Shown here piece after piece: positions 8,014-37,484 of a stretch of 64,000 nucleotides of DNA. How positions within the stretch are numbered: the stretch's first letter is position 1; each line of letters begins with the position of its first letter. The stretch is from the NCBI GenBank assembly GCA_964587425.1, contig CAZPLB010000002.1, forward strand, positions 31,285-95,284, given 5' to 3'. Below the pieces are notes generated by a model. That model was not told where the DNA came from. It did no database searches and saw only the letters and a list, made by a program, of their open reading frames with translations. Made by a program: the position numbers and the translations under genes. The stretch comes from an uncultured Gammaproteobacteria bacterium (lineage in GTDB: Bacteria > Patescibacteriota > Microgenomatia > UBA8517).

Positions 8014-8052
8014 GCCATATGATATCAACTTCAAGCCATCTTTTGTAGAGCT

Positions 8053-21590: not shown

Positions 21591-22010
21591 TCATTTAATT
21601 ATTTTAGTTTTAAAAAACTCAAACGCTTTCTTGTTGTTATCTCTCCCAAGTAATTTTACTACCTCATCGAAACTACACCATTTATATTCTGAATGCTCTG
21701 AAGGATTTAATTTAATTTGAGAATTAGAATCTATTTCAATTCCGAACACAAATTCAATTACTGTTTCATCTCTTTTGTTTTTCCAATCAAATCGCCATAT
21801 TTCATCAGTAAAGTTTATTGAGTTATCTATACCAGTTTCTTCTTTAAGTTCACGTTTGAGACAATCAATTAATTTTTCACCATCATTCACTGTTCCAGTC
21901 AAAGGTTGCCAAAAATCACCATCTTCTGGTGTGCGTTTAAGAATTAGAAACTTGTATTCATCTTCGACTTTGGAAAACAAAATACCTTCTAGTTTAATAG
22001 GAAGTTCCAT
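21591..22010 (-). CDS. NUDIX hydrolase
   Basis: Nudix box GTVNDGEKLIDCLKRELKEETGI (G-x5-E-x7-REUxEExGU). Confidence 0.7.
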   Translation of the reverse strand: MELPIKLEGILFSKVEDEYKFLILKRTPEDGDFWQPLTGTVNDGEKLIDCLKRELKEETGIDNSINFTDEIWRFDWKNKRDETVIEFVFGIEIDSNSQIKLNPSEHSEYKWCSFDEVVKLLGRDNNKKAFEFFKTKIIK

Positions 22011-22013
22011 AAA

Positions 22014-22565
22014 TTAAAATATTTCTTCCAAGCCTTTCAAAACTTGTGGCAATGTTTTCCATCCAGAAGATCCATTTAGATGTCCACCATCCTCTACAGC
22101 TACAAGTTCGCAAGCCAACTCTTTTGACAGTATCTGGGCATGTTCAAAAGGAACTCTATCATCATTATCTCCATGAATCACTAAAAAGTGATCAGCACTT
22201 TTCTTAATCTTTTCAAAATCAAAAGGTTTATCAAGAAAATTATTTATATTTCCGTTTCCAACTGATTTAATTGGTCCTGAAACTAAAACTACTCCCTTTA
22301 TATTCTTGGCTTCAGTTGTTTGCAAAAATCTAAGTATTGCAGTACTCCCCAAACTATGTCCAACCAAATAAATTTCATTATTTTTGTTTTGTTCTACAAC
22401 TCTTGCAATTTCTTCAATCCATTCCTCGCAAACAGGATCTTCGGTTTTTGGCATAGGTAAAGCGCATGCATAAATTTCTTTTTTCTCTAGCTCTCCCATC
22501 AACCAAGTTCGCCAACCACCGTTTGGCCATCCTTTATATCCATGCACAATAAATACTTCTTTCAT
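22014..22565 (-). CDS. Alpha/beta serine hydrolase of the RBBP9/YdeN family
   Basis: IVHGYKGWPNGGW...LVGHSLGS nucleophile elbow GxSxG and ~180 aa size typical of this family. Confidence 0.6.
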   Translation of the reverse strand: MKEVFIVHGYKGWPNGGWRTWLMGELEKKEIYACALPMPKTEDPVCEEWIEEIARVVEQNKNNEIYLVGHSLGSTAILRFLQTTEAKNIKGVVLVSGPIKSVGNGNINNFLDKPFDFEKIKKSADHFLVIHGDNDDRVPFEHAQILSKELACELVAVEDGGHLNGSSGWKTLPQVLKGLEEIF

Positions 22566-23140
22566 TTTACAAATGGATTTTCCATATCAAATAATATATC
22601 TGGAGTGTGGTTGTTTATCTTATCTTCTGAAATTCCATATTTTTCAGAATATAAAGTATCAACAGAACAAAATCTTGCTTTCAAATAATCAAGTCCGAGT
22701 TTATTTGCAACTTCTTTTACTTCTTCTTCGGATTTTCCTTCTATTTCCACATATGACTCAAGAAACGGCCATTCATCAATTGTTATTTCAACACCATTTA
22801 ATTCCCATAGTTCTCTTTTACTTTCTTGGTATGCTTTCTTTTTTGCCCCAGTTGCCTCTAAAAGTTCAACACCTTCATTGAAACTATTAATTTTTAATTG
22901 AATTTCTTTCTGATTTTCAATTTTATCCCCATCAACTATCTTTAAGCTCATTGTAATTTTATCTCCTTCATCACGAACGCGAAGCCAACCGCCTTTTATC
23001 TCATGACCTGAAGGAAGGTTAAACACTGCTCTTTTTTGCATAAATTCACTGCGAACCAATTTCGCACCAGCTTTTTTAAGTTTAGTTCTTGCACTGGTTT
23101 TGCTGATATTTGGAAATGTAGCTTCAAATTCTGTATACAT
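22562..23140 (-). CDS. CYTH (triphosphate tunnel metalloenzyme) domain protein
   Basis: N-terminal E-x-E-x-K-like signature (TEFEATF..), alternating charged beta-strand pattern, ~190 aa. Confidence 0.55.
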   Translation of the reverse strand: MYTEFEATFPNISKTSARTKLKKAGAKLVRSEFMQKRAVFNLPSGHEIKGGWLRVRDEGDKITMSLKIVDGDKIENQKEIQLKINSFNEGVELLEATGAKKKAYQESKRELWELNGVEITIDEWPFLESYVEIEGKSEEEVKEVANKLGLDYLKARFCSVDTLYSEKYGISEDKINNHTPDILFDMENPFVK

Positions 23141-23186
23141 ACAGGTATATTAACACAGCTTATAGGTTTAGAGATATAATTCGAAC

Positions 23187-23609
23187 ATGACAGATAAACA
23201 AATAATTCAGAAAATTGTTGTTGGAGGAGTGATAGTAAAAGATAATAAGATCTTAATTATCCAAAGATCTGCTGATGAAGACGCTTTTCCAAACCTCTGG
23301 GAACTTCCAAGTGGCAAAAGAGAGCTATTGGAAACTTCAGATGCTGCTGTTATTCGTGAAGTTAAAGAAGAAACAAACATAGATGTAAAAGTTGTAGCAC
23401 CAATCTCTGTTTTTGAATACAAAGTTGAGAAAGAAGACGAAATAAGAGATACTACTCAAATTAATTTTTTGGTTGAATACATTAGTGGTAAAGTTAAATT
23501 GAGTAATGAACATCGAACTTTTGCATGGATCACAAAAGAGGATCTGGATAAATACGAAGTCAGTCAAAAAACTAAGAAAGTTATCGAGAAAGCTTTTGAA
23601 ATAATTTAA
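23187..23609 (+). CDS. NUDIX hydrolase
   Basis: Nudix box SGKRELLETSDAAVIREVKEETNI. Confidence 0.75.
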   Translation: MTDKQIIQKIVVGGVIVKDNKILIIQRSADEDAFPNLWELPSGKRELLETSDAAVIREVKEETNIDVKVVAPISVFEYKVEKEDEIRDTTQINFLVEYISGKVKLSNEHRTFAWITKEDLDKYEVSQKTKKVIEKAFEII

Positions 23610-24589
23610 TCCTTCAAAATTTCTAATCTTACTTTGTTATCTTTTACACTAAGTTTTGCACTTCCTCCAATCGGGAAAGTAACTTTGGGATCAGTATGTC
23701 CAAAATCAACATTTGACGTAACGGGAATATTATCTAGCTCTCTTTTTGTTTTGATAATTTCATTAAGTAAGGTGTTGGATATCTCACTTGCCTTTTGGAA
23801 TCTACCAATCACAATCCCCTTTATGCCGTTGAAACCAGGTTGTTGGATTAGAGATTGCAAAACACGATCAAAATGATGAGGTTTAGATTCGTCGTCATCT
23901 TCAATAAAGAGAACCGAATTAGTTAAATTTGGCATGTATTGTGTTCCAAACAGCAGTTTAAATGTATCAAAGTTTCCCCCTAGAATTGTTCCTTGAGCCT
24001 CTCCTTCGTTTATTGCCAAAAAACCATTATTCTTTGTTTGTTTTCTATTGTCTTGATCTTCATACCAAGCATCGTCACTCCAGAATTTACTTGGTTTTAC
24101 TTCAAATTGTTTGTCTTCCATCAAACATTTCTTGAAATAGTCCAAAGTGTAATCAAAATACAATTTTTGTCCAAAACTTGAATAGTGTGGTCCTGAATAA
24201 GTAACAAGACCAGTCATTGCAAAAATAGCATTATTAAGAATTGTAATATCTGAATAACCACACAAAAGTTTAGGATTTTTTTTAATTAAATCCCAATCAA
24301 TATAATCAAGTAACTGATTAGAATTAAAACCCCCAATAACAGTTAAAATTGCTTTTATGCTCTTATCTGCAAACGCATCGTGTAGGTCATCAACTCTTGA
24401 CTTAACACTAGACGATGTAAAATCGTCAATCTCTTCAATATGTTTTCCAAAAGACAACTTAAACCCCATTTCCTGAAAACGCTTATTTGCGATTTCCCTA
24501 GTCTCTTTAGAAATGATAGACATAGACATAGAAGGAGCAATAATCCTGATTTCGTCTCCTTTAACTAACTTTTTTGGTATAACATTCAT
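23606..24589 (-). CDS. LD-carboxypeptidase (peptidase S66 family)
   Basis: S66 layout: ..IRIIAPSMS.. N-terminal region, GYSDIT(I/A)L nucleophile motif (LCGYSDITILNN), C-terminal His/Glu region; start moved to the ATG at 24589 (track start TTG). Confidence 0.7.
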   Translation of the reverse strand: MNVIPKKLVKGDEIRIIAPSMSMSIISKETREIANKRFQEMGFKLSFGKHIEEIDDFTSSSVKSRVDDLHDAFADKSIKAILTVIGGFNSNQLLDYIDWDLIKKNPKLLCGYSDITILNNAIFAMTGLVTYSGPHYSSFGQKLYFDYTLDYFKKCLMEDKQFEVKPSKFWSDDAWYEDQDNRKQTKNNGFLAINEGEAQGTILGGNFDTFKLLFGTQYMPNLTNSVLFIEDDDESKPHHFDRVLQSLIQQPGFNGIKGIVIGRFQKASEISNTLLNEIIKTKRELDNIPVTSNVDFGHTDPKVTFPIGGSAKLSVKDNKVRLEILKD

Positions 24590-24690
24590 ATCAGAAGTTG
24601 TCTGGTGGTTCCACAATAGCTCTCTTTACTAACTGAATTATTTGTCTAAACCAAATTTTTATCTCCATACAGCTATTATACTCTAGGCAA

Positions 24691-25590
24691 TTATAAATTT
24701 GGGTACTCAAAAGGTTTTTTGTCAGTTGACATATCTTTATGTTCAGAAATATAATCGTCAAAATATTTTGGTAGATGAAACAGAGACAAATGTTCACTAC
24801 CTGAATAAAAGGAGAGTTTAACCTTGTTTTTCTTTATATATCCATCAATTTGAACTGGAGTAGCCTTCAAAGGATTGCATGAATCACTTGCAAACAAAAA
24901 CCCCCAATCGTCACCAAAAATAGAAATTATTGCATGCATAGGAAAAACATTTTTAAATACTTGTTTCATTGAATGATATAGAGCTGATATACAAGTAAGA
25001 TTGTTTGGGTTTACGCTTTGAGATTGAACGGTAAGAATACCGTTTTTGTTTAAATGATTTTTAACAATTCTATAAAAATCTTTTGTAAAAAGTGGATGAG
25101 AAGCCCCGCCATGTATCGGTGCAGTTATATCAACAATTATTAAATCAAACTTTTCTTTAGAACTTGCGAGATATCCTCTTGCGTCTGCAAAAATTAATTT
25201 TACCTTCCGATTATTGTATGATCCTTCATGCCAACCAGGTAAATATTTATCAAATATTTCTATAGCTTCCTCGTCGATATCACATTGAACTATTTTTTCC
25301 ACACTGGGATGTTTTAAAATCTCTTTAAGCATCACACCTTCTCCTCCCCCCGCAATAAACACTTTCTTAACTTTTTTGTGAAGTATCATCGCTGGGTGTA
25401 CCAAAACTTCATGATATGCTGGATTATCTATGTCAGAAGATTCTGGACAATTATCCATGAAAACTGCTCTGCCAAAAGTTTTTGTTTGCAATATTTCTAA
25501 AAGTTGAATTTTAGTCTGTTTTTTTACTAAAACTTTATCATATTCAATACTTATCTTTTCAGAATCTTTTCTAAAATAAGTTTTCCACAT
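24691..25590 (-). CDS. speE: Spermidine synthase-like polyamine aminopropyltransferase
   Basis: KKVFIAGGGEGVMLKEILKH..IVQCDIDEEAI..ADARGYL matches the SpeE GGGDGG and D-x-D motifs. Confidence 0.7.
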   Translation of the reverse strand: MWKTYFRKDSEKISIEYDKVLVKKQTKIQLLEILQTKTFGRAVFMDNCPESSDIDNPAYHEVLVHPAMILHKKVKKVFIAGGGEGVMLKEILKHPSVEKIVQCDIDEEAIEIFDKYLPGWHEGSYNNRKVKLIFADARGYLASSKEKFDLIIVDITAPIHGGASHPLFTKDFYRIVKNHLNKNGILTVQSQSVNPNNLTCISALYHSMKQVFKNVFPMHAIISIFGDDWGFLFASDSCNPLKATPVQIDGYIKKNKVKLSFYSGSEHLSLFHLPKYFDDYISEHKDMSTDKKPFEYPNL

Positions 25591-25596
25591 ACTAAA

Positions 25597-26409
25597 TTAA
25601 AACAATGTTACTTCTGGAAAAGTTCTTTTTCTGAGAACAAAAACACCAAAAGCTAAATAGTTATGATTTTCGTTAAACAATCCCATTGTCTCTATTAATC
25701 TCGTAATTGCAGCATCGGTAACACCCTTACTCCACCCTTTTTGTATTGCAAGATATGAGCAGTAATCCTTTATTTTTTTATCTGACACTGCTTCAGCCAC
25801 ACTGTAAGTGGTATGATATATTTCCAAATCTGCTTTTCTGTAAATATTTAGCCAATATTCTTTATTCCACGGCTGGATTTGAATCCCTAATAATTTATTA
25901 AGTTTATTTAACATCTTCTTTGGAGGATCTGTATGATAATAAAAGTTTATATCTCCAATGAAACCCCAAGGTCTACATACTCTTTTATATTCATTCAAAG
26001 CTTTCTGTATATCGGGAATGAAAGCAGTTGATCCACCACTCATTACAAGATCAAAAGAATTATCTTCAAACGGAAGTTTCTCGCCATCTCCCTGCAAGAA
26101 GGAGATCTTATTTTTGAGGTTAGGATAGTATTGATCTCTTAATGAAGTTGCAGATTTGATCATGTTCTTGTTTATATCCAATCCAACAACTTTACATTTT
26201 GCCAAACTTGCAATTTCAAAACTGCAATAACCAGTATTACATCCCACATCCAAAACCTCGCTTTCAGAGCCAAGAAAAGTGTTTATTACCAGCTCACGTA
26301 TAGACTCTTTCCCCCCAGGCGGTCTATTTATTTCATCCAAGGTCGCCATTAAATCAACATAGCTCATTTTTTCGATATCACTTACAGTAAGTTTTTTTGC
26401 TTTATTCAT
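25597..26409 (-). CDS. Class I SAM-dependent methyltransferase
   Basis: Motif I VLDVGCNTGYCSFEIA, acidic loop VGLDINKNMI. Confidence 0.7.
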   Translation of the reverse strand: MNKAKKLTVSDIEKMSYVDLMATLDEINRPPGGKESIRELVINTFLGSESEVLDVGCNTGYCSFEIASLAKCKVVGLDINKNMIKSATSLRDQYYPNLKNKISFLQGDGEKLPFEDNSFDLVMSGGSTAFIPDIQKALNEYKRVCRPWGFIGDINFYYHTDPPKKMLNKLNKLLGIQIQPWNKEYWLNIYRKADLEIYHTTYSVAEAVSDKKIKDYCSYLAIQKGWSKGVTDAAITRLIETMGLFNENHNYLAFGVFVLRKRTFPEVTLF

Positions 26410-26411
26410 AT

Positions 26412-26795
26412 CTATTCAAAATACCTCCTAACTTTCTTAATTTTAGTTTTACCAGGTTTAAAAATATCTTTAATATCATCGAAAAGCAAAACTGTATTTT
26501 CTTCGTTGTCTTTCGAATAATTACAAACGAATACGTCTAAACTTACATAACCTTCTTTTGGCCATGTATGTATAGCAACATGTGATTCAGCAAGAGACAC
26601 AACACCTGTTAAACCCATATCAAACTGATGATAATACGAACCAAGTTCGTTAAAACCATGCTTTAGTATTAATTTTGATATTTCATTCCTTATGTGATTT
26701 GTGGTAAATCCTAATAATAAATTCGGGTCGCAACTTTGTAAGTCACCAATTACATGTAACCCTACAATATTTTTATTTCCTAGGTTGTCTGTCAT
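26412..26795 (-). CDS. speH: S-adenosylmethionine decarboxylase proenzyme (pyruvoyl-dependent, SpeH type)
   Basis: LAESHVAIHTWPKEGYVSLDVFVC matches the AdoMetDC (SpeH) self-processing and active-site signature. Confidence 0.8.
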   Translation of the reverse strand: MTDNLGNKNIVGLHVIGDLQSCDPNLLLGFTTNHIRNEISKLILKHGFNELGSYYHQFDMGLTGVVSLAESHVAIHTWPKEGYVSLDVFVCNYSKDNEENTVLLFDDIKDIFKPGKTKIKKVRRYFE

Positions 26796-27829
26796 ATCGT
26801 ATTAACGTGATCCTTCAAAACTGGATAAAGTATACAGTCAACGATAGATGGTAAACCTAACATCCAGGCAATAAGTCTTTCTATTCCCATTCCAAAACCA
26901 GCCGTCGATTTATACCCACTGTTCAAACGAAGATCCAAATACCAATCGTAATTACCGTTATTCCGAACATTTTGCCTCTTCATAGATGTTATTAATTCGT
27001 TTTTGTTATCTTGCCTTTGTCCACACCCTAAAATCTCACCACCAAAACCTCCGTTGATGGAAGGGAAGATTAAATCTGCATTCAAAACTTTATTTATGTT
27101 ATCAGGATCTGGTTTCTGATAAAAAGCAACAGTATCTCGATCGTATTTAATAACCCAGAAAGGAGTATTGTCCTTAGATAAAATCTCGGCTAATTTTATT
27201 TCACCTTCTCTTGTAAGAACCCGTCCAAAATCATGCTGTTCAATCAGTTTACCGAAACCTTTTTTCGTGAGAATATCTTCTGCTTCATCGAAAGTTACTA
27301 TCTTAAATTTTCTATTTAACCCCTTTTTTATTTCACCAAAATTATTCTTTTTAAAACTAAAAACATTCTTATCATAAGATTCCAACACTTTTCCGCAAAT
27401 ACTCTTCACTAATCCTTCAGCAATATTCATAGCATCTTCTAATTTTCCCCTTAACTCAGCTTCACAATGAAAGAATTGATTAAGGTGTCTGTCATCGGGA
27501 TCTTCACCTCTAAAAGAAGGTAAATAGCAGTAGACCATATCAAAAGACTTTTGTACAAGAGGTTCCATACCAAACTGTGCACTATCAACCAAATAAGCAT
27601 GCTTCGAACCAAATTCAAAAGGTATGGGAACTGAATCGGAACCTTTCCCGGTTGGAGATGAGACTCCCTGTGTAATCAAAAACAAATCTACCTTAGGTGA
27701 ATTTAGTTTTTGAAAATAAGCATCACATGACAAACTAACCAAATTCCTAAGTAATATGAGATTACGGTAAAAACTATCTTTAGTTAAATCTTTAATATGA
27801 TTGTCAGGATTGTAATATTTAGTTTTCAT
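26792..27829 (-). CDS. AsnA-like aspartate-ammonia ligase / class II aaRS catalytic-core paralog (no anticodon-binding domain)
   Basis: Class II aaRS motif 3-like GFGMGIERLIAWMLGL and motif 2-like FHCEAELRG region in a ~345-aa protein lacking N-terminal OB fold, as in archaeal-type asparagine synthetase A. Confidence 0.55.
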   Translation of the reverse strand: MKTKYYNPDNHIKDLTKDSFYRNLILLRNLVSLSCDAYFQKLNSPKVDLFLITQGVSSPTGKGSDSVPIPFEFGSKHAYLVDSAQFGMEPLVQKSFDMVYCYLPSFRGEDPDDRHLNQFFHCEAELRGKLEDAMNIAEGLVKSICGKVLESYDKNVFSFKKNNFGEIKKGLNRKFKIVTFDEAEDILTKKGFGKLIEQHDFGRVLTREGEIKLAEILSKDNTPFWVIKYDRDTVAFYQKPDPDNINKVLNADLIFPSINGGFGGEILGCGQRQDNKNELITSMKRQNVRNNGNYDWYLDLRLNSGYKSTAGFGMGIERLIAWMLGLPSIVDCILYPVLKDHVNTI

Positions 27830-27886
27830 AAAAATCCTATAAGTGTAGAAATTGTATCACAATTTTAGAAAAATGGCGTAAAATAG

Positions 27887-29179
27887 CTATTTTGTTGAAG
27901 TAGCCATCCTGTTTAAAAACTCATCTCTGTTTACCGTGGTAGGTTGTGTCTCTTCTCTACCTTTTATTTCAACAACACCTTTTTCTATTGTTTTACGACT
28001 CACGACTATCCTCGCCGGAATGCCCATTAAGTCCGCATCTGCAAACTTTTCTCCTGCTCTAACATCTTCTCTATCATCAACCAAAACAGAAACACCCCTG
28101 ACTGCTAACCCAGATCTTATATAGCTGACTTCCTGAACAACATCTTCTCTATCTCCATCTAATACAACCAGATGACACTGAAAAGGAGCCACCGAGTCAG
28201 GCCAAACAATACCCCTCTCATCATTGTGTAATTCGACAATAGAACCCATTAATCGAGTTGTACCTATTCCATAACAACCCATCAGAACTGGTTGTGAAAA
28301 ACCATCTTTGTTGGTGAACCTCAAACCAAAATCATCACTAAATTTAGTACCCAACTCGAAAATATGGCCAACCTCAATAGACTTACTTGTTGTCAGTTGA
28401 CCGTTACATTTCGGACATATCTCCCCATTATGATAATGTGATATTTCTACATTTTGAGCAAAAGTACAATCGACACAATGTACGATTGTATCCTCTCCAG
28501 CTTCAGATAAAGCCATAAACTCATGGGTCGACAACTTTGTGAACGCACCTCCTGATGCTTCTGTCACTTTGGCATTTATTCCACAAGCTGCAAATATACC
28601 AAGATATGTTTCTCTTGTTGCTTCATAAAATTGTCTAAAATCCTCATAGCTACCATGAAAACTGTACATATCATTCATACCAAACTCTCTCCCTCTAATT
28701 ATTCCCGACTTAGCTCTTTTCTCATCTCTATATTTCTTTTGCATTTGATATACCGCTAACGGTAAGTGCTTATATGACTTAATTCTCTCCTTAACAAGTG
28801 GTGTCACAATCTCTTCGTTAGTTGCACCAAGGGCATATTCTTTATCTCCCCATCTACTTTTTAACTTAAAAAGAACTTCAACCGTATTCCACCTTCCTGT
28901 CTGATCCCACACCGACTTTGGTTGTAAGGCTGGCATTATAATTTCCTCTGCCCCTAATCTATTCATTCCATTCCTGATTATTCCTTCAATGCTATCCATA
29001 ACCCTAACACCCAGTGGCAAAATTGAATAAATTCCCGCTGCTTCTTGATGAATATAACCTGCTCTTATGAGCAACTCTTGATTTCTTGAGGGGCTATCTT
29101 TGGGAATTTCCTTCCTTGTTTGAGATAATGAAGAAGAAAGTAAAAGTTGATCAGAACCATAACGCTCTCGTCTTTCCAC
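27887..29179 (-). CDS. proS: Prolyl-tRNA synthetase (short bacterial form without editing insertion)
   Basis: LLIRAGYIHQEAAGIYSILPLG N-terminus, class II motifs (RGREF; GCYGIGTTR), C-terminal anticodon-binding domain; GTG start in track. Confidence 0.8.
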   Translation of the reverse strand: MERRERYGSDQLLLSSSLSQTRKEIPKDSPSRNQELLIRAGYIHQEAAGIYSILPLGVRVMDSIEGIIRNGMNRLGAEEIIMPALQPKSVWDQTGRWNTVEVLFKLKSRWGDKEYALGATNEEIVTPLVKERIKSYKHLPLAVYQMQKKYRDEKRAKSGIIRGREFGMNDMYSFHGSYEDFRQFYEATRETYLGIFAACGINAKVTEASGGAFTKLSTHEFMALSEAGEDTIVHCVDCTFAQNVEISHYHNGEICPKCNGQLTTSKSIEVGHIFELGTKFSDDFGLRFTNKDGFSQPVLMGCYGIGTTRLMGSIVELHNDERGIVWPDSVAPFQCHLVVLDGDREDVVQEVSYIRSGLAVRGVSVLVDDREDVRAGEKFADADLMGIPARIVVSRKTIEKGVVEIKGREETQPTTVNRDEFLNRMATSTK

Positions 29180-29223
29180 AATAAAACAAGTATATCAGGA
29201 GAGTCAAATAACTATAAGAAACT

Positions 29224-30282
29224 TTATTCGTTAATATCTTTTTGCACTAACTTTCTTGCAAGTAATTCAGTACCAAAACCAGAAACAACAGTTTTTTCTT
29301 TATTATTTGAAGTTAAATAATTTAACCATTTAACTTCACCGCCATCAACTACATCCACATCTCCCCAATATATAGCAAACACAATTCCTGAATAATGTCC
29401 CATACCATAAGCTCTGTCTAATTGTACTGTACAAGCTATATCAGGTCGTCCTTTAAATAAAGTCGATAATTTATCAATCTCAGAAACTTCATTTTTTAAT
29501 TCAACAGAATCCACATAAGAAAGAAATGCATTGTCAGATAAAATATCTTCTGCAGAAAGTCTGCCACGTAAACCAGTTGGTAGTTTTTGCGATAAAGCCA
29601 ACTCCTTATCGTCCGCCTTCATACCAGCATCATGAATTAATAGGTTGGTAGCTATATTCACATTTCCAATAGAAATCTCAAACTTAGTATTCGGAATCAA
29701 ATCATTAAGCACAGACAGGTAATAATCAACAAGCGAGACTATTGTCTGATGAGAAAAACGATACCCCAAATCTTTATTTGGAAGATAGGAATCAATCGTC
29801 CCGAACATATCGAAAGTAGTTTTATAATTCGGATCGTCATATCTTTGGAGTCTGGTGCATCTATGAAATGTAGATAAAGATACTCTTTCGTTTTGACCAG
29901 AAAACCTTCTTCTGTAAACTTCAATAGCTAGTTGAGTTGTTGGATCAGCCACCACATCTGCAGGTCTCCCAGTAGTATGCGAGATCTTTAACGCAGAAGT
30001 TTGAGCTAATATAGAATCTAATCCAAAAGGACCCAAAGGCGAAAGAAAAATAAAGTCTCGTCCTCCTTTTCTTTGGACAAGTAACTCGTGAATATGATGT
30101 AAAAACAATGAAGTATCCGAATCAAGTGGCAATGTAAATTCATCTCGGGACAAATCCTTTACTCTTTTAACACCGTAATCCTGAACAGAACTACTAATCT
30201 TTTTATGGACAGCGGCCCTAAAATCAGTATTTACTGAACTATTGTTTAAATCAACACCATCTATCCTTTTTTCTATTGACAT
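29224..30282 (-). CDS. HisRS-like class II aaRS paralog (HisZ-like, catalytic core only), divergent
   Basis: Alignable blocks to HisRS: FEISIGNV vs LELNSIGS, RAYGMGHYSGIVFAI vs RGLDYYTGTVFE, DGGEVKWL vs GGRYDGL, SGFGTELLARKL vs GFAMGLERL; no anticodon-binding domain; key HisRS residues not conserved. Confidence 0.4.
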   Translation of the reverse strand: MSIEKRIDGVDLNNSSVNTDFRAAVHKKISSSVQDYGVKRVKDLSRDEFTLPLDSDTSLFLHHIHELLVQRKGGRDFIFLSPLGPFGLDSILAQTSALKISHTTGRPADVVADPTTQLAIEVYRRRFSGQNERVSLSTFHRCTRLQRYDDPNYKTTFDMFGTIDSYLPNKDLGYRFSHQTIVSLVDYYLSVLNDLIPNTKFEISIGNVNIATNLLIHDAGMKADDKELALSQKLPTGLRGRLSAEDILSDNAFLSYVDSVELKNEVSEIDKLSTLFKGRPDIACTVQLDRAYGMGHYSGIVFAIYWGDVDVVDGGEVKWLNYLTSNNKEKTVVSGFGTELLARKLVQKDINE

Positions 30283-30326
30283 AATGAGCTATATTAGGCT
30301 CAACTCAAGAAGAAATCAAATTTTGT

Positions 30327-30548
30327 TTAAGAATTACCATGCAAATGTCCTTTTATATATTGTGCAATAGATACTACAACTGGGTCGGTATTATCAACAA
30401 CCATCTCAGAAGAAGACTTTTGTGCAACATCAATAACTCCAGTTTCTTTAATAACCAACTCTTTACCAACATCCTTTAAATGATCCTTTATGTACTGCTC
30501 AATAGATGCTGCAATAATTGCATCATCTGGTCTATTTTCTATTTCCAT
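30327..30548 (-). CDS. Small acidic protein with an internal tandem repeat (73 aa), first gene of the aaRS-paralog/polyamine operon
   Basis: Two copies of I(E/A)QYIK(D/G)HL; preceded on the minus strand by TTGACA-16-TAAAAT only ~6 nt before the ATG (near-leaderless). Confidence 0.35.
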   Translation of the reverse strand: MEIENRPDDAIIAASIEQYIKDHLKDVGKELVIKETGVIDVAQKSSSEMVVDNTDPVVVSIAQYIKGHLHGNS

Positions 30549-30627
30549 AACACTATTTTACTACTTTGTTCTAGTTTGTCAAAAAAGTTATTACGCAACA
30601 CTAATCCCCTTTTACGGAATAAATCTA

Positions 30628-31761
30628 CTAAGTAACATCTCTTTTTCTTGTTACTCCAATCAGAATTGCAATCCACCCCAGTACAAAACTATAGAAAAAT
30701 GTATTTGTGAAGCTTCCATGTACTAGTACTGCGGCTAGTATTACTAGAAGTGCAAAACCCATTTCATCTTTCGATGTTTGAGAAATGATGCTTTTTATAC
30801 AAAATAAAAAAACGGTTGTTCCAGCTATTCCTGTTGTCACAAGCAGAAAAAATAGACTATTATCAAGTCCGCTGCACGCATGCGATGCAGAGTTCGTATC
30901 ATTCAAAAACTTTTGCCGTCCAGCACATACATTATCAAATCCAATTCCAAAGATGGGGGATTTGGAAAAAAGAACAATGCTCTCTTTGTAATTCTTGAAT
31001 TTCTCATTAACTGAATATGTTCGAGTCAAGTTAACTCCCTCCCCCGCAGGCCTTGGCAAAATTGGAATAATTAATAGAAAAAACAGGCCCAAGTATATTA
31101 AAAACTTTTTCTTGTATTTTAAAAATACAATTAGGATTGACCCCAGAAGTGCAATATAGCTCGACCTTGAATAAGTGAAAGCAATAGTAGTAATTAAAAA
31201 AATATTTAAGAGGATATTTGTCAAAGATTTCTTACCAGCTGTTTTAACCAAAACCAATATTTCAGTTAGAACTAATATTATTCCAGTAAATGCAGGATCT
31301 AAAAATGTTGAAGCTAACCTGAAATAATGATCATCCCAACCCAAATCTTTCAACTCGCGAAGATCTGGATATATAAAATACTGTAGCCATCCAAGAATGG
31401 CTACAAAAATTCCTACAACCAGTAAGCTTCCAAGTATTAACTTTTTCTTCTTTAAGGTTCCGCTAAACCTCATCCAAATTACCTGGGAAAAGATTACATA
31501 TGAAAAAAAACGAAGAGCATAGAGGCTTCCTCTCAAAACAACCTCTGGGGGAAAAAAGATTGTTGAAAAAACTAATGAGAATAATAAAACAACAAAAAAA
31601 TTCTTGAAGTAATTTGGTATTGGAGTTAAGTTTCTCTTTTTGTAAAAAAAGAAAACAAGGCAAATAATGCCAACCACAATATCAGTTAAATTAAAAATTT
31701 TATATTTCAGCAATTGCCCTAAAGGGAAAATTGCGAGGTATGTAAATATTAATGTGTCCAT
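30628..31761 (-). CDS. O-antigen ligase-like (Wzy_C family) polytopic membrane protein
   Basis: About 10 TM segments with a ..FAYSRSSYIALLGSILIVF.. loop region typical of O-antigen polymerase/ligase family. Confidence 0.55.
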   Translation of the reverse strand: MDTLIFTYLAIFPLGQLLKYKIFNLTDIVVGIICLVFFFYKKRNLTPIPNYFKNFFVVLLFSLVFSTIFFPPEVVLRGSLYALRFFSYVIFSQVIWMRFSGTLKKKKLILGSLLVVGIFVAILGWLQYFIYPDLRELKDLGWDDHYFRLASTFLDPAFTGIILVLTEILVLVKTAGKKSLTNILLNIFLITTIAFTYSRSSYIALLGSILIVFLKYKKKFLIYLGLFFLLIIPILPRPAGEGVNLTRTYSVNEKFKNYKESIVLFSKSPIFGIGFDNVCAGRQKFLNDTNSASHACSGLDNSLFFLLVTTGIAGTTVFLFCIKSIISQTSKDEMGFALLVILAAVLVHGSFTNTFFYSFVLGWIAILIGVTRKRDVT

Positions 31762-32501
31762 TGTTTACTTAAACTAAGATATGAATGAAAGCTCATAAAT
31801 GCTGCTTGAACAAAACCATGTGTACCATCTAAAAATCCAAGCCTCAAAATGTAGTTAACAAAAAATTTTCCCACTGGATGGAAAATGACAAATAAAAAAT
31901 TAAACCTCTTTTTTTCTTTTATATTTTCCTCTGCATGATGTGTTGAATAGTTATTTAAATCAGTTAAAAATTCTTTTATTGAGTTATGTGGATAATGTAA
32001 AATTGGATTATTTAATTCACCAATTTCCCCTTTTACCCGCCATTCCTCATGGACAGCTCTGTTCCATTTGCCGCTTCCTTTTCTAGCAAGTCTTAATAGT
32101 TTGGCATTTGCAGTTTCCCCATGCCTCAATTCCTTTCCCATCCAGTAATCTCTCCTTCTTATGCAGTACCCAGAAATATTTGTTGTTTGTAGTTTATTTA
32201 CAATTTCCTCTGCAAGTTCCTTTGGAACAACCTCATCTGCATCTAAAAATAATACCCATTCATTTTTTGCTTTTTTGAGACCAAAATTTCTTTGTTCTGC
32301 AAAGTTGTTGTCGAGCTTGTGTCTAAATACTTTTACTTTTTTTGATTTAAATAATTTTACAATACGAAGTGTGCCGTCAGTTGAATAATCATCAACAACA
32401 ATAATCTCACTGCACCACATGAGGCTTGCCATACACTTTTTTATATTCCTCTCTTCATTTTTTGTAAGTACGACAGCAGAAATTGAAGTTATATTATGCA
32501 T
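31749..32501 (-). CDS. Family 2 glycosyltransferase
   Basis: GT2 N-terminus VVLTKNEERNIKKCMASL..IIVVDDYSTDGT and DxD (LFLDADE). Confidence 0.75.
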   Translation of the reverse strand: MHNITSISAVVLTKNEERNIKKCMASLMWCSEIIVVDDYSTDGTLRIVKLFKSKKVKVFRHKLDNNFAEQRNFGLKKAKNEWVLFLDADEVVPKELAEEIVNKLQTTNISGYCIRRRDYWMGKELRHGETANAKLLRLARKGSGKWNRAVHEEWRVKGEIGELNNPILHYPHNSIKEFLTDLNNYSTHHAEENIKEKKRFNFLFVIFHPVGKFFVNYILRLGFLDGTHGFVQAAFMSFHSYLSLSKQWTH

Positions 32502-33717
32502 TTCTTAAAGTCTTTTGAAAAAGGTAGAAGGCAACAGGAAGTCCTACAATTGAACCAATCAAAGCCGAGAATGCAGCTCCAGTAATTCCAAACATATTAG
32601 TCAAAGGAAAAATAAATATAGCAAGCGTTAAAATACTAACCAAAGTTACAATTGAAACATAATTCTGTTTCTTGTATGCCAAAAAGACAGAATAAAAAAG
32701 ACTTGTAATTGATCTAATTACGCCAAAAAGAGAAAGAACACGAAGAACTGGTATGGCAAGTAGCCACTTCTCACCCAACACTAGTCTCACTGCAATATCA
32801 GACAAAAGAAAAAGAGCAATTCCAAATGGAGCCACTGTGACAAATGTATATCCTAAAGTTTTATAAAATGCTCTCTTAATTCTTTCCTTGTCTTCTGTAA
32901 ATTTGACGTAAATTGGGAAGGTAACTCTTCCAAGTTGTTTCGCTAAAACATTTAATGGAACTATTGAAAGAGCATATGCCTGCTGATAAATTCCAAGTGA
33001 GAATGCATTCAAAAGGCGCCCTATGGCAAGGTCATCCAAATGTTCAAAGAAATAATCAAAAAGATAAGCAGCTGTTACCCATTTACCGCGGTGAATAATC
33101 CTTAGTAATTGTTCTTTTTCAAACTTCAATTTTGGCCTCTCTTTCACAATGATAAATGTAATAATAATTTCAAGGATTGCAGAAACAATCATTCCTAAAA
33201 CAAAGCTGAAAACAGAATGTGTAGTTAATGCAAAAATGACAACTGAAATATCTCCAATCAAAGATATTGCAAATCTATAAATTGCATCCTCCTTGAACCT
33301 AAGACTTTTTTGCAGAGTTACAATGGCAGGATTAATAAAGCCGCGGATAAATGGCACCAGACTTACTGCAAGAATTACATTGTGCGCTTGAGGTGTTTTG
33401 AAAAATAAGGCAATTGGGTATGAGAAAATTGCTAAAACAAGAGAAATTAAAACTCCCCTTGCAATAGATACCACCCAAGCAGTATCTAAAAACTTTTTTA
33501 CTTCGTCTTTCTCTTGAACTAAAAAGACATTAATCCCTGTTTCAGTTAGAAGTTCCAAAAAACCAAGTATTAAAATTGCTATTCCAAAGACACCAAATTC
33601 AGTTGGAGAAAATATCCTGGAAAGAATTGCAATTTTAATAATGCTCGTTCCTTTCCCAGCCAAATCAAGGAAACTCCCCCAAGAAATCCCTTTTATAACA
33701 TCTCGAGAATACCCCAT
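32494..33717 (-). CDS. Polysaccharide flippase (Wzx/MOP superfamily)
   Basis: 12-TM-like hydrophobicity pattern, gene context between glycosyltransferases. Confidence 0.6.
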   Translation of the reverse strand: MGYSRDVIKGISWGSFLDLAGKGTSIIKIAILSRIFSPTEFGVFGIAILILGFLELLTETGINVFLVQEKDEVKKFLDTAWVVSIARGVLISLVLAIFSYPIALFFKTPQAHNVILAVSLVPFIRGFINPAIVTLQKSLRFKEDAIYRFAISLIGDISVVIFALTTHSVFSFVLGMIVSAILEIIITFIIVKERPKLKFEKEQLLRIIHRGKWVTAAYLFDYFFEHLDDLAIGRLLNAFSLGIYQQAYALSIVPLNVLAKQLGRVTFPIYVKFTEDKERIKRAFYKTLGYTFVTVAPFGIALFLLSDIAVRLVLGEKWLLAIPVLRVLSLFGVIRSITSLFYSVFLAYKKQNYVSIVTLVSILTLAIFIFPLTNMFGITGAAFSALIGSIVGLPVAFYLFQKTLRNA

Positions 33718-34640
33718 ATAAATCCAAGCATTATAGCTATATCGCTTGTTACCTGAAGTATAATTACAAATAGCCCGCTCCGCCAGTCGAGATGCTTATT
33801 TCTAAATTTAAAAATAGAAAAAGCAAAATAAATTAAAACACAAAAAAGTAAGTAAACAGAAGGTAACTCAAAAAACAAAACAAAGGAAAGAAGAGCTAGA
33901 CCAATCAAATACCTCAAAAAAATTGTAAGTGTGTGTATATTGTGCGACCAAAGACCTTTGCTTGGATGAACTATAACTTTTGTTAATACATCACCTTTTG
34001 AATATCCAAAAACTTTTTTACCAAATTCAAAAATATCTTTTGGCATCCCCCACTCTACAATTGCATTTTTCACGACAACAATTTTCACACCGTTTTTCAA
34101 AAGTTTTACGTTAAACAGTGTGTCCTCAGCTGCATCTCTCAGTTTTTCATCAAATCCATGAACCTTTTTCCAAACACTCTTTCTGAAGGCAATAGAGCGA
34201 GTAGAAGGTAAAAAATCATCACCAACTTCATCAGGCATTACCCCCAAATATGGAATCATTGCTCTTTGAAGATATGAGTCTCCAACCATCTTATAAAATC
34301 CAGCTACGACTTCATTTTTCCCACTAACAAATGGTTTCGTTAATTTTGAAAGCCAATCTCTCTGTGGAGTACACCCTGCATCAGTCATTGCAATAATTTC
34401 ATACTTAGAAAGCTTTACACCAAGGTTTCTTCCTTTTGATCTACTAGTTCCTTTTTTTACAATTAATTTTAAGTTTGAAGAAGATTTAAAACTATTAATT
34501 ATTGAAATTGTGTCATCAGTTGATCCAGCATCAACAATAATTATCTCGTCAGGCTTTTTACTTTGTTTTGAAAGTGAAACAAGAAGCTTTTGAATTGATC
34601 CCTCTTCATTTAAAATTGTTACTACTACTGAAACTTTCAC
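33693..34640 (-). CDS. Family 2 glycosyltransferase with C-terminal TM segments
   Basis: VSVVVTILNEEGSIQKLL..IIIVDAGSTDDT GT2 signature, DAG..D motifs, TM tail. Confidence 0.75.
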   Translation of the reverse strand: MKVSVVVTILNEEGSIQKLLVSLSKQSKKPDEIIIVDAGSTDDTISIINSFKSSSNLKLIVKKGTSRSKGRNLGVKLSKYEIIAMTDAGCTPQRDWLSKLTKPFVSGKNEVVAGFYKMVGDSYLQRAMIPYLGVMPDEVGDDFLPSTRSIAFRKSVWKKVHGFDEKLRDAAEDTLFNVKLLKNGVKIVVVKNAIVEWGMPKDIFEFGKKVFGYSKGDVLTKVIVHPSKGLWSHNIHTLTIFLRYLIGLALLSFVLFFELPSVYLLFCVLIYFAFSIFKFRNKHLDWRSGLFVIILQVTSDIAIMLGFIWGILEML

Positions 34641-35153: not shown

Positions 35154-37484
35154 TTGTGTTTCTTTAGCAATATAGTTATTATTGTTTACATGAACAACCA
35201 AACGTATAATCTACCTTTGGAAAGAGATACAGAAACCCTCATTGATAGAACTCTTGAAAACCTTGGCTGGATTGATGACCCTAAAAGTAATGCTAGAAAT
35301 GTATACAAGCAACAACCCAAAACCAGCGATCAAAAACGAGCATTGAATGGTCTTTTCCCTGATTACGTACTATATAAAACTGGCTCAGATAAACCAATTA
35401 TTGTGATTGAAGCCAAAAAGCCAAGAAAAAATATTCACGAAGCACTAAAACAAGGATTAGATTACGCACAAAAGATTGGAGCTCCCATTGTTTTTGCCAC
35501 TGACGGAATTTTTACTAAAACACTGCATATTAAAACAAAGAAACCACTCACTCTTAACGGTGAAGAACTTGATGAACTTATTAGGGAGTATATCGCCTTA
35601 CAATATATAGATACTAGCGATTTAACCACTAAAGACAAAAAAGTAATCGAGTCTCGAAAAGAGCTAATCGGTATATTTGATCATGCCAATGACATATTGC
35701 GTGGTGAAGGACTCCATGCAGGAGTTGATAGATTTAGTGAATTTGCCAATATTCTTTTTTTGAAGATAATATCTGAGCGAGAGGATATTAACGAACAAAA
35801 TGGGGATGCTAACGTAATACCAAGAGAATACCGCTGGAACTTCTTTAAGAATAAGAGGGATAACGAGTTGAGACAATATATCAACTCGATTGTCCTTAGA
35901 TATTTCAGGGAAAGATATAACGATTCAAATATATTCACAGATCTTCGGATTAAAAACCCGAATCGATTAAAGAAAATAATAGAAATGCTCGATCCTCTTT
36001 ATCTGATAGATACTAAAGCAGATATAAAAGGTGATGCTTTTGAGTACTTCTTAAAGTCGTATAGCTCGGGAAATAGTAATGATCTTGGGCAATATTTCAC
36101 ACCTAGACACATCGCTAAAACTTTAGTTAAGCTACTGAACCCCCAACTTGGTGAAAAGATCTATGATCCCTTCTGTGGAACAGGTGGGATGTTGACAGAA
36201 TCTTTCAAATATATTTTCAATCGAATGCCACAGAATAGAAATTCTGAAGATATTTTGAAAACTAGTACAGTATACGGACGAGAGTTAACTAGCATCGCCA
36301 GAATCGCCAAAATGAATATGATATTGATAGGTGATGGCCATAGTAATATTGAGCAGACAGACAGTCTTGAGCACCCATTATCAAATGAATATGATGTGGT
36401 AATAACAAACATCCCATTTGCACAAGAAACTGAGTGGGGAAACCTTTATGACCTACCAAGCAGAAATGGTGACAGTATATGCCTACAGCACTGCCTTAAA
36501 TCTCTAAACTCTAATAATCCAAATAGTCGAGCTGGAATTATTGTACCAGAAGGTTTCTTGTTTGATTCAAGATTTGAGAAAGAAAGAGAGTGGTTAGTTG
36601 AAAAATTTGACTTACAAACTGTTATTTCTCTACCTTCTGGCGTTTTCCTACCATATACTCCACAAAAGGCTAGTATTTTGCATGTAAAACTAAGAGATAA
36701 AGCTAAGAAGAAGAAAAATGTTTGGTTTTTTGACGTAAAGTCAGATGGTTACACCTTAGATAATTACAGGAAACCAACTGATAAAAATGACTTAGACAAT
36801 CTACTGGACGGCATACATTTTGATTCACTGGAAATAAGCGAACTAAGAAAAAGAAAATATGAATTAGTTAGATCACTCTATATTAAAGGTGGAATAATTG
36901 GAGGGAAACATAAAACAGTAGATCTAAAGTCGATAGCAACCGTTGCGTTTGGTAATTCGGCACCACAAGACCTTGATAGTTTCATAGACGGAACCCACCC
37001 TTTCGTTAGAGTCTCCGATCTCGCAAAGAAACATATAGCATTTAATTTAACAGATACTAGAGATTTGCTTAACGACAAAGCAGTAAAAAATATGCGACTT
37101 TTTCCTAAGGGAACGATACTTTTTCCTAAAAGTGGTAAATCAGCTCTGAAAAACCATAGAGGTATATTAGGCCGTGACGCTTATCTGGTAAGTCACTTCG
37201 CTTGTATTATCCCTAATGTTGACATAGTTGATCCCTACTACCTGTTTAAATGTTTAATAAATATTAAAGCTCAGGACATCATAGTGAACGAAGGCTATCC
37301 TTCAATCAGGAAGGAGACGTTTGAAAATCTACAGATTCCACTACCACCAATAGAGAAACAAGAGGAATTAGTTAAAGAAATGAAAGAAATAGTAGATTTA
37401 GAGTATAGAGTTAACGAGCTTATGAGTAATATGGATATACGATTTGAATCTGAAAATGCTACTTTAGAGAACAATGACAAATAA
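35154..37484 (+). CDS. Single-polypeptide Type IIG-like restriction-modification enzyme (HSDR_N/Mrr-like PD-(D/E)xK nuclease domain + gamma-class N6-adenine MTase + one HsdS-like target recognition domain)
   Basis: N-terminus PDYVLYKTGSDKPIIVIEAKKP (HSDR_N motif); MTase motifs GQYFTPRHIAK (X), DPFCGTGGML (I), VVITNIPFAQ (IV, NPPF-type); C-terminal ~300 aa with HsdS-like TRD features (..KIGDLFE-like block, IPLPPIEKQEELV conserved HsdS repeat motif). Confidence 0.75.
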   Translation: MCFFSNIVIIVYMNNQTYNLPLERDTETLIDRTLENLGWIDDPKSNARNVYKQQPKTSDQKRALNGLFPDYVLYKTGSDKPIIVIEAKKPRKNIHEALKQGLDYAQKIGAPIVFATDGIFTKTLHIKTKKPLTLNGEELDELIREYIALQYIDTSDLTTKDKKVIESRKELIGIFDHANDILRGEGLHAGVDRFSEFANILFLKIISEREDINEQNGDANVIPREYRWNFFKNKRDNELRQYINSIVLRYFRERYNDSNIFTDLRIKNPNRLKKIIEMLDPLYLIDTKADIKGDAFEYFLKSYSSGNSNDLGQYFTPRHIAKTLVKLLNPQLGEKIYDPFCGTGGMLTESFKYIFNRMPQNRNSEDILKTSTVYGRELTSIARIAKMNMILIGDGHSNIEQTDSLEHPLSNEYDVVITNIPFAQETEWGNLYDLPSRNGDSICLQHCLKSLNSNNPNSRAGIIVPEGFLFDSRFEKEREWLVEKFDLQTVISLPSGVFLPYTPQKASILHVKLRDKAKKKKNVWFFDVKSDGYTLDNYRKPTDKNDLDNLLDGIHFDSLEISELRKRKYELVRSLYIKGGIIGGKHKTVDLKSIATVAFGNSAPQDLDSFIDGTHPFVRVSDLAKKHIAFNLTDTRDLLNDKAVKNMRLFPKGTILFPKSGKSALKNHRGILGRDAYLVSHFACIIPNVDIVDPYYLFKCLINIKAQDIIVNEGYPSIRKETFENLQIPLPPIEKQEELVKEMKEIVDLEYRVNELMSNMDIRFESENATLENNDK

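Follow-up and report, generated by a model that had tools for sequence, protein, structure and literature searches.

Among described systems, the closest to the locus analysed here are the gene clusters for microcin C (McC). In the maturation of this compound, MccD moves the 3-amino-3-carboxypropyl group of S-adenosylmethionine (SAM) onto the microcin C phosphoramidate, and MccE1 then decarboxylates it to an aminopropyl group (PMC8323819). Stand-alone homologs of MccF, MccE2 and MccG confer McC resistance in many bacteria (PMC8323819, PMC9239234), with the GNAT and S51 families corresponding to the immunity enzymes MccE2 and MccG (PMC9239234). We analysed a 64,000-nucleotide stretch of Patescibacteria DNA (contig CAZPLB010000002.1 of assembly GCA_964587425.1, positions 31,285 to 95,284 of the forward strand; hereafter the window), in which eight co-directional minus-strand genes run from 30548 to 23606 and include a catalytic core of the asparaginyl-tRNA synthetase (AsnRS) type together with relatives of MccD and MccF. 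An earlier note on this DNA had described an operon of class II aminoacyl-tRNA synthetase paralogs fused to polyamine biosynthesis genes. The genes are real, yet their sequences do not suggest a housekeeping role in making asparagine and polyamines. They form a conserved module that joins a synthetase core to relatives of enzymes that decorate or detoxify McC. Such a module probably makes an aminoacyl-nucleotide compound and protects the cell from it.

The conserved linkage of the AsnRS core with an MccF-type peptidase and a SAM-dependent transferase is a well-supported new observation, and no description of it was found in the literature searched. The module is found mainly in Patescibacteria (Candidate Phyla Radiation, CPR), with one copy on a Calothrix plasmid.

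The AsnRS-like core, its peptidase and the linked SAM enzymes

At the heart of the array is a 345-residue protein that consists of a tRNA-synt_2 core only (PF00152, 2.3e-32). Because its alignment to the asnS model covers positions 131-453 only, the OB anticodon domain is missing, and PF01336 gives no match. The earlier note had placed this protein between an AsnA-like enzyme and an AsnRS-core paralog; the latter description stands and the former is not supported. AsnRS outscores archaeal AsnA by 173 to 139 bits, and among PDB structures 1x54 is matched at 2e-33 as against 3e-9 for 1nnh. The archaeal AsnA models (PRK06462) do match at 2e-40, but below every curated cutoff (138.7, 135.5, 108.2 and 79.7 bits against 389, 322, 368 and 309); the asnS score of 172.9 bits likewise lies below its cutoff of 342.6.

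The protein keeps motif 2 (FRGE), RHLxQFxHCEAE, GEIxGxGQR and motif 3 (GFGMGIERL), and the active-site motifs are more than 95% conserved across the family (53 sequences). The AspRS-type lysine of QSPQLxK is absent, as it is in AsnRS. This family counts more than 120 clusters that share at least 49% identity, with similar lengths throughout, and at source its members are annotated as "amino acid--tRNA ligase-related" or "asparaginyl-tRNA synthetase". Since the active-site motifs are intact and the family is large in Patescibacteria, the sequence evidence identifies the protein as an AsnRS-core paralog and not as the truncated pseudogene that had been entertained for it. Its motifs suggest a functional AsnRS-type site for an amino acid and ATP without recognition of a tRNA anticodon, and mark it as the constant component of the module and its putative adenylate-forming enzyme.

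When species-representative genomes were scanned with this core, 48 more loci came to light; their open reading frames (ORFs) were called, searched with the window proteins and clustered. In 47 of the 54 non-redundant loci, drawn from many CPR classes, an S66 peptidase gene lies within 6 kb of the AsnRS-like gene, and most of the exceptions are contig ends. The peptidase gene may stand upstream, downstream or on the opposite strand, stop and start codons often overlap, and several gene orders occur. SAM-dependent transferases of three families accompany the pair in most loci, and a second synthetase-like protein, which may be HisZ-, AlaRS- or LysRS-like, is usual.

In sequence, the S66 peptidase of the window lies much nearer to MccF-type enzymes than to those of LdcA type. 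It matches the Bacillus anthracis 'MccF-like' protein BA_5613 at 8e-119, B. anthracis MccF at 1e-50 and Escherichia coli MccF at 7e-40, and LdcA-type enzymes at only 1e-16 to 1e-26. The serine nucleophile (GYSD) and the GHT histidine are present, as is a tryptophan aligned with the adenine-stacking tryptophan of MccF; this is presumably W180 in B. anthracis MccF, in agreement with the residue count in the alignment. The same tryptophan is W186 in E. coli MccF (PMC8323819).

Additional evidence for a McC-like chemistry comes from the 270-residue protein that had been called a class I methyltransferase. The fold was correctly named (Pfam, NCBIfam), but the label is too generic: among PDB structures MccD (5fcd) comes first (E 8.7e-23; residues 3-232 aligned with 5-233), followed by a match at 1e-13, and the alignment includes regions N- and C-terminal to the Rossmann core. 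A profile of its subfamily matches MccD with a probability of 99.8 (E 9e-29, 206 columns); with the other transferase families of the module, MccD has no more than the Rossmann core in common. On these alignments the protein is a nearly full-length MccD homolog. Such homologs occur in 13 of the loci scanned, including the window, L001, L004, L006, L014, L018, L033 and L035-L039, and also in L059-L061.

Next to this gene lies a SAM decarboxylase of 127 residues, for which the earlier assignment to speH holds (80.1 bits with TIGR03330, whose cutoff is 75.65). It contains the AESH self-cleavage motif, and the start of its gene overlaps the AsnRS-like stop by 4 nt. A SAM decarboxylase takes the same position in L001, L004, L033 and L059-L061. 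In L039 the MccD-like gene is instead paired with a pyridoxal-phosphate (PLP) decarboxylase of Orn/DAP type (PF02784, 8.5e-33), which we take to be of the fold class of MccE1. An MccD-like transferase with an adjacent decarboxylase thus matches the logic of MccD plus MccE1 (PMC8323819).

The 299-residue protein does not bear out its earlier naming as speE. While it matches Spermine_synth (PF01564, 2e-42), and its best structural matches are Thermus thermophilus SpeE (1uir, 2e-54) and the thermospermine synthase ACL5 (6bq2, 1e-49), it falls below both speE cutoffs (NF002010, 239.9 against 260 bits; TIGR00417, 202.8 against 249.55). Its six closest homologs, at 49-56% identity, form a subclade with it, beyond which identity drops to about 40%. 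The dcSAM-binding (decarboxylated SAM) motif GGGEG is invariant in the alignment. The acceptor motif D-x-x-[D/E]-P, whose acidic residue helps to bind the diamine acceptor in spermidine synthases, is found in six more distant homologs and in five aminopropyltransferases from the PDB, whereas all seven members of the subclade carry D-[IV]-T-A-P (D-I-T-A-P in the window). Two of the homologs were traced to contigs, which gave three loci, each with its genes in the order AsnRS-like, S66, SAM decarboxylase, MccD-like, SpeE-like. On this evidence the SAM decarboxylase and SpeE-like pair is a dedicated tailoring unit of the module and not evidence of general polyamine synthesis. The subclade is found only inside the module, beside a SAM decarboxylase, and the earlier idea of a fusion with polyamine biosynthesis genes is not sustained.

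These same enzymes would also suit a product that carries no nucleotide. Class II cores without tRNA-binding domains act as amide ligases in AsnA, archaeal AsnA and EpmA, families that the 345-residue protein matches weakly. A core of this kind could join Asp or Asn to an amine, aminopropylated or methylated for example, that is supplied by the SAM decarboxylase, MccD-like and SpeE-like enzymes, and the resulting Asx-polyamine-type conjugate would be turned over by the S66 enzyme. The tight linkage of the aminopropyl-transfer set, the ability of S66 enzymes to cut amide bonds beside an L-centre carbonyl, and the absence of both exporter and MccB all agree with such a ligase. The MccD homology and the conserved adenine-stacking tryptophan of the peptidase, however, indicate a substrate that bears a nucleotide, and the NUDIX, HD and APH genes that recur near the module indicate nucleotides or phosphates. 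Furthermore, the SpeE-like and SAM decarboxylase set is present in a minority of loci, while the AsnRS-like/S66 pair is nearly universal. We consider an amide ligase of this type unlikely, if worth bearing in mind.

Synthetase-like partners and passenger genes

The HisZ-like partner in the window is a protein of 352 residues with a weak sequence match to HisRS and HisZ (E 0.003-0.0065; 12-18% identity; TIGR00443, 16.7 bits against a cutoff of 271.65). An AlphaFold model built on 11 homologs (pLDDT 77.7, pTM 0.79) was compared by Foldseek with HisZ and HisRS structures and matched them at E ~1e-14 with TM scores of 0.56-0.62 (HisZ 6ftt, E 1.3e-14; HisRS 6o76, TM 0.62). Because the predicted structure matches both HisZ and HisRS, the class II HisRS-like fold without an anticodon-binding domain, as proposed earlier, is confirmed at the level of the model. 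The amino-acid-site motifs are kept (VVADPT, resembling HisRS LRPEGT; DR..GxGHY, resembling the HisA motif). Within the family, however, the arginine of motif 2 is not constant, and that of motif 3 has been lost. The window ORFs scanned included no hisG. The earlier suggestion of a new role for this HisZ-like protein, possibly a non-catalytic one, is compatible with this loss of the motif 2 and motif 3 arginines.

All close relatives found for the 352-residue protein, about a dozen, are in CPR, and genes for a tRNA-synt_2 core, AdoMet_dc, a methyltransferase and Peptidase_S66 recur next to them. The HisZ-like family adjoins the module in 19 loci; its member in L008 matches PF13393 at 7.6e-8. 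Since there is a Chloroflexota member (P0010) without linkage to the module, and the superfamily comprises 1,657 representatives at profile level, it is broader than the module itself. Elsewhere the place of the HisZ-like protein is taken by an AlaRS-like partner of 381 residues, also without the motif 3 arginine (14 loci; PF01411, 2.5e-6), or by a divergent LysRS-like partner whose motifs 2 and 3 are intact (5 loci). A search with the AlaRS-like partner against the annotated plasmid collection (tblastn), which lacks the Calothrix plasmid accession, gave no match. Like HisZ, the partners of HisZ and AlaRS type may be subunits for binding or regulation that carry out no adenylation.

Several loci show variations on this theme. 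At the module end in L010 (12841-15683), a genuine LysRS (511 aa, 563 bits) is immediately preceded by a LysRS-like paralog of 474 aa, which reaches 269 bits where the cutoff is 468. Similar LysRS-like paralogs are found in L009, L021, L031 and L055, where a radical SAM gene is often present as well. Module variants in L035 (4575-5651) and L036 (2978-4066) contain an orphan protein of 359 residues with HIGH-like and KLSKS-like motifs, and L053 (7608-8864) encodes one of 419 residues with 'IRPENT' and 'IAPIQV' motifs reminiscent of class IIa synthetases. Neither the L053 nor the L035 protein has a Pfam or PDB match; from their motifs, these orphans may be further synthetase-derived partners.

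Partners without catalytic arginines would also fit a locus that had no product at all and served as an island of resistance or detoxification. In such an island the S66 peptidase (elsewhere GNAT or S51 enzymes) would inactivate aminoacyl-adenylate mimics released by neighbours, with the synthetase-like cores serving as decoys or sensors. The McC resistance given by stand-alone MccF, MccE2 and MccG homologs (PMC8323819, PMC9239234) and the lack of an exporter, a precursor and MccB fit this picture. It is at odds with the biosynthetic tailoring functions of the MccD-like, SAM or PLP decarboxylase and SpeE-like proteins, with the strong conservation of the AsnRS-like catalytic motifs, and with the identity of the partners, since proteins of His, Ala or Lys type would be poor decoys for a mimic of an Asp or Asn adenylate. 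A pure resistance function is therefore quite unlikely.

The two remaining genes of the array are, we conclude, passengers of this window only. The 430-residue protein looks like a genuine bacterial-type proline--tRNA ligase (ProRS), in line with the earlier call of proS: its TIGR00409 score is 458.6 bits against a cutoff of 306.7, and both PF00587 and PF03129 match, so that the core and the anticodon-binding domain are present; there is no INS editing domain. It is absent from all other module loci and is probably a housekeeping gene embedded in the operon. The ideas that it is a module component or a resistance copy were dropped on the same ground.

The 73-residue ORF does contain the internal repeat noted for it earlier, but the repeat is short (13 aa, ~37 nt; SIEQYIKDHL/SIAQYIKGHL). 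The ORF has no Pfam, NCBIfam or PADLOC match, and tblastn against 60+ related loci matches only L058, a contig of the same organism. Because it is homolog-less in these loci it was dropped from the module, and with it the idea of a conserved precursor or carrier protein; none of the loci of the relatives of the 352-residue protein has this ORF or ProRS, neither of which is thus a conserved part of the system. Its first six residues, MEIENR, are the N-terminus of a HisZ-like homolog (P0002), and the HisZ-like protein of the window starts MSIEKR; the remainder of the ORF is unrelated. This likeness may be coincidental, or the trace of a 5' end that was once duplicated.

In about 11 of 57 loci the module has a housekeeping synthetase gene nearby, a frequency that by a rough estimate is about chance for a genome of ~1,000 genes. 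This proximity agrees with an ordinary housekeeping account of the window, in which an AsnA-like synthetase, ProRS, speH and speE, a methyltransferase and a murein LD-carboxypeptidase share one operon by chance and the HisZ-like protein is a relic. Both ProRS and the SAM decarboxylase exceed curated thresholds, the archaeal AsnA models do find the 345-residue protein, and CPR genomes are compact, with mixed operons. Chance assembly of this kind is nonetheless improbable. The linkage of AsnRS-like, S66 and transferase genes is kept in dozens of species in several gene orders, the peptidase is much nearer to MccF-type than to LdcA-type enzymes, the methyltransferase is MccD-like, and the SpeE-like protein lacks the acidic residue of the acceptor site and belongs to a module-only subclade. 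The 345-residue protein is below all AsnA and AsnRS cutoffs, and GatCAB, whose genes are present in the window as the earlier note had stated, already supplies Asn-tRNA. The direct, AsnA-like route to asparagine that had been proposed beside GatCAB is not supported, because AsnRS scores better than AsnA, the cutoffs are missed and the near-invariant neighbour is an MccF-type S66 peptidase, for which an asparagine synthetase has no need.

Layout of the window cluster and its surroundings

The array is operon-like, and spacing within it ranges from a 4-nt overlap to a 74-nt gap (Table 1). The earlier gene list was right in its count of eight, but named seven, leaving out the S66 peptidase, and its coordinates covered the first four genes. 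A promoter-like site ends 7 nt upstream of the ATG of the 73-residue ORF; it is the best minus-strand match, in a region whose total of such sites is not above chance. Given this sequence match it may be the operon promoter, in which case the first ORF would be leaderless or the 73-residue stretch would be a 5' leader. At permissive E-values no Rfam family matches the leader or the region of this ORF, and at gathering thresholds Rfam finds five tRNAs only in the whole window.

Table 1. Features of the module region and of the gat genes (positions count from the first nucleotide of the window).
Feature	Position	Strand	Remark
Promoter-like site	30555..30582	-	TTGACA, 16-nt spacer, TAAAAT; 11/12 matches
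73-aa ORF	30327..30548	-	putative gene; short internal repeat; window-specific
HisRS/HisZ-like class II core paralog, 352 aa	29224..30282	-	no anticodon-binding domain
Proline--tRNA ligase, 430 aa	27887..29179	-	TIGR00409 above cutoff
AsnRS catalytic-core paralog, 345 aa	26792..27829	-	without OB anticodon domain
Pyruvoyl-type SAM decarboxylase, 127 aa	26412..26795	-	TIGR03330 above cutoff
MccD-like SAM-dependent alkyl transferase, 270 aa	25597..26409	-	best PDB match 5fcd
SpeE-like aminopropyltransferase, 299 aa	24691..25590	-	module-specific subclade
S66 serine peptidase, MccF type	23606..24616	-	336 aa from TTG; 327 aa from ATG at 24589
NUDIX gene, possible accessory	23187-23609	+	convergent with S66 gene
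CYTH gene, possible accessory	22562-23140	-	
Ser_hydrolase gene, possible accessory	22014-22565	-	
Second NUDIX gene, possible accessory	21591-22010	-	
gatC	7708-8034	-	in window
gatA	6335-7711	-	in window
gatB	3788-5086	-	in window

It is possible that the module extends to the NUDIX, CYTH and Ser_hydrolase genes beyond the peptidase (21591..23609); a Ser_hydrolase homolog is also found near the module in L007. Among 150 accessory ORFs from ~40 loci the top families are NUDIX (6), HD (6) and APH (5), and histidine kinase and radical SAM families recur as well. A GNAT protein is encoded in L037 (7e-18) and Peptidase_S51 in L014 and L018 (3e-22).

Nucleotide hydrolases of this sort raise the prospect of a dinucleoside polyphosphate or other nucleotide signal, in which the cores would make Ap4A-type compounds from an aminoacyl-adenylate and a nucleoside triphosphate, with NUDIX, HD and CYTH proteins for their breakdown and the methyltransferases for their modification. 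Class II synthetases of Lys, Ala, His and Pro type are classic producers of Ap4A, NUDIX and HD are the commonest accessory families, a CYTH and two NUDIX genes flank the window cluster, and RelA/SpoT-like and HD genes flank L001. Such a signal would, however, leave unexplained the near-universal S66 peptidase, the MccD-like/decarboxylase/SpeE-like set and the GNAT and S51 proteins, and the accessory nucleotide hydrolases occur in a minority of loci. We regard it as most improbable.

Two of the sister loci have neighbours of their own. The copy on plasmid 2 of Calothrix parasitica NIES-267 (L029), which would suit a mobile secondary-metabolism cassette, has an EgtD-like histidine-specific methyltransferase (Methyltransf_33) plus Amidase_6 protein just upstream (4909-6126, minus strand) and an S9-type hydrolase just downstream. 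In L001 (Woesebacteria RIFCSPHIGHO2_02_FULL_42_20 and relatives), a 600-residue class IIb synthetase with an OB anticodon domain and tRNA-synt_2 is fused, unusually, to a YbaK/ProX-type tRNA_edit domain (1-1148); it lies 3 kb from the module, beside the RelA/SpoT-like and HD genes.

Further afield in the window, gatA and gatB are separated by a gene for a 430-residue major facilitator superfamily (MFS) transporter (5089-6381), whose start overlaps the end of gatA. The gene for FtsZ (760 aa, 52835-55117, minus strand) is split by an intein with a LAGLIDADG homing-endonuclease domain, as seen from the split Tubulin GTPase domain and from matches to both PF14890 and PF14528. A 776-residue ORF (35154-37484, plus strand) that, by the look of its sequence, may combine an N6-adenine DNA methylase with a specificity or restriction-type region sits 5 kb upstream of the operon, past a block of glycosyltransferase, O-antigen-ligase-like and flippase-like genes (30628-34640). 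An anti-phage defence system was considered for the window and rejected; PADLOC gave generic methyltransferase-domain matches only.

A possible pathway and its relation to known systems

We tentatively propose, at rather less than even confidence, that the region encodes a microcin-C-like aminoacyl-nucleotide pathway with self-immunity that is independent of ribosomally synthesised and post-translationally modified peptides (RiPPs), in which the AsnRS core replaces MccA and MccB. The AsnRS-core paralog would bind Asn (or Asp) and ATP and form a product of aminoacyl-adenylate type. In the most specific and most speculative form of this step, Asn-AMP would pass through a succinimide to a re-adenylylated phosphoramidate, isoasparaginyl-AMP, much as MccB acts on its peptide; the product that defines mcc clusters is a phosphoramidate isoasparaginyl-nucleotide, an inhibitor of AspRS. 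The MccD-like transferase would then install an aminopropyl-type group as in microcin C, on a substrate and in an order that we can only suppose, with the SAM decarboxylase either supplying dcSAM or decarboxylating the adduct. The SpeE-like enzyme may add a further aminopropyl group to an acceptor that is not a diamine. The variable partner could bind or add a second amino acid, or might be a non-catalytic subunit for specificity or regulation. Finally, the MccF-type S66 peptidase would hydrolyse the amide bond of the aminoacyl-nucleotide and so protect the producer.

We infer these chemical steps, the acceptor of the SpeE-like enzyme and the role of the partner from the gene families, their conserved linkage and the motifs that are intact or altered; the commonest accessory families, being nucleotide- or phosphate-directed, also count in favour. 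Several points weigh on the other side. A secreted antibiotic normally needs an exporter, and none is conserved near the module: there is none in the window cluster and none recurrent near the module, and the nearest MFS gene is the one between gatA and gatB, 18 kb off. Because there is neither MccB nor a precursor, the nucleotide-forming step calls for a chemistry that class II cores are not known to perform. No mccA-like, Asn-ending precursor was found, the sole small ORF, of 73 residues, ending ...GNS; ORFs of fewer than 20 residues were not systematically searched. ThiF/MccB has no match among window genes 21591-31761 and is not among the 25 commonest Pfam families of the 150 accessory ORFs. 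True MccD homologs occur in only about a quarter of loci, the rest having generic class I methyltransferases, and no more than one or two loci have GNAT, S51 or the PLP decarboxylase. As the motif 3 arginine is absent from the HisZ-like and AlaRS-like partners, these may ligate nothing. We know of no physiological substrate for the BA_5613/Lmo1638 subfamily, to which the window peptidase belongs. All of the support, moreover, comes from homology and gene linkage.

A broader version of this proposal is doubtful: that class II synthetase cores were recruited in CPR to synthesise aminoacyl-nucleotide toxins without MccB, and that a cyanobacterial plasmid acquired them by mobilisation. Here free Asn and ATP would be the direct starting materials of the AsnRS core for an (iso)asparaginyl-adenylate warhead, the MccD-like enzyme, SAM decarboxylase and SpeE-like enzyme would add aminopropyl groups, a partner of His, Ala or Lys type would add or select a second amino acid, and the MccF-type peptidase would protect the producer. 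This would constitute a route to Trojan-horse antibiotics of microcin C type that needs neither the ribosome nor a non-ribosomal peptide synthetase, possibly directed by episymbionts against their hosts. If the microcin-C-like reading itself is right, protein-synthesis inhibitors that mimic aminoacyl-adenylates would have a new construction, built by synthetase paralogs where McC uses a ribosomal peptide and a ThiF enzyme. A widespread CPR family annotated only as "amino acid--tRNA ligase-related" would gain a testable function, and ultrasmall, host-dependent bacteria a chemical weapon or a molecule for translation control. Candidates for unusual chemistry are the aminopropyltransferase, whose acceptor site is changed, the SAM decarboxylase, which is coupled to an MccD homolog, and the pseudo-synthetases of HisZ-like type. 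Should the mechanism prove wrong, the conserved linkage stands, and annotation as asparagine and polyamine housekeeping is probably misleading.

Comparison with better-known relatives of the individual proteins bears on both versions. Like AsnA and the archaeal asparagine synthetases derived from AsnRS (AS-AR; 1nnh, 3p8t), the AsnRS-like core is a class IIb core derived from AsnRS/AspRS without an anticodon-binding domain, and it probably forms an adenylate for a purpose other than tRNA charging. It differs in its distance from the solved AS-AR structures (3e-9 to 7e-8, as against 2e-33 to Pyrococcus horikoshii AsnRS), in being ~50 residues longer at the N-terminus, in a family-specific SSPTGxGSDSxP loop and in its linkage to an MccF-type peptidase. 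The 352-residue protein shares with HisZ and HisRS its predicted fold, and with HisZ the missing anticodon domain and the pseudo-enzyme-like combination of retained amino-acid-site motifs with degraded catalytic arginines. Unlike either, it is linked to the AsnRS-like/S66 module and can be swapped for AlaRS-like or LysRS-like proteins.

Similarly, the SpeE-like enzyme has the fold and GGGEG motif of polyamine aminopropyltransferases (1uir, 6bq2) and a gene paired with a SAM decarboxylase, but its second acidic acceptor residue is Ala in seven of seven subclade members, it scores below the speE cutoffs and its subclade is confined to the module. The peptidase shows ~60% full-length identity to stand-alone BA_5613 (4e5s) and Listeria monocytogenes Lmo1638 (4h1h; 8e-119 and 6e-111, respectively), with the S66 catalytic residues and the tryptophan in common. 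Whereas those genes stand alone, that of the window is translationally or operonically coupled to a synthetase core.

The mcc clusters (mccABCDEF, with MccG and MccH variants) differ from the module in having a ribosomal MccA, a ThiF-like MccB and an MccC exporter, and because ThiF-like MccB, precursor and exporter are all missing here, the module falls outside the mcc RiPP family as defined (PMC9239234). The adenylating enzyme of the module is a class II AsnRS catalytic core, a pyruvoyl SAM decarboxylase stands in place of MccE1, a SpeE-like aminopropyltransferase and a second synthetase-like protein are added, and the hosts are CPR. The two systems nevertheless have much in common. Homologs of MccD and MccF share one operon in the window, and a decarboxylase gene lies beside that of the MccD-like protein; sister loci contain GNAT (as MccE2; L037), PLP decarboxylase (as MccE1) and S51 peptidase (as MccG) genes. 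Both appear to centre on an adenylating enzyme specific for Asn or Asp, and in both the tailoring SAM enzymes differ between loci (PMC8323819, PMC9239234).

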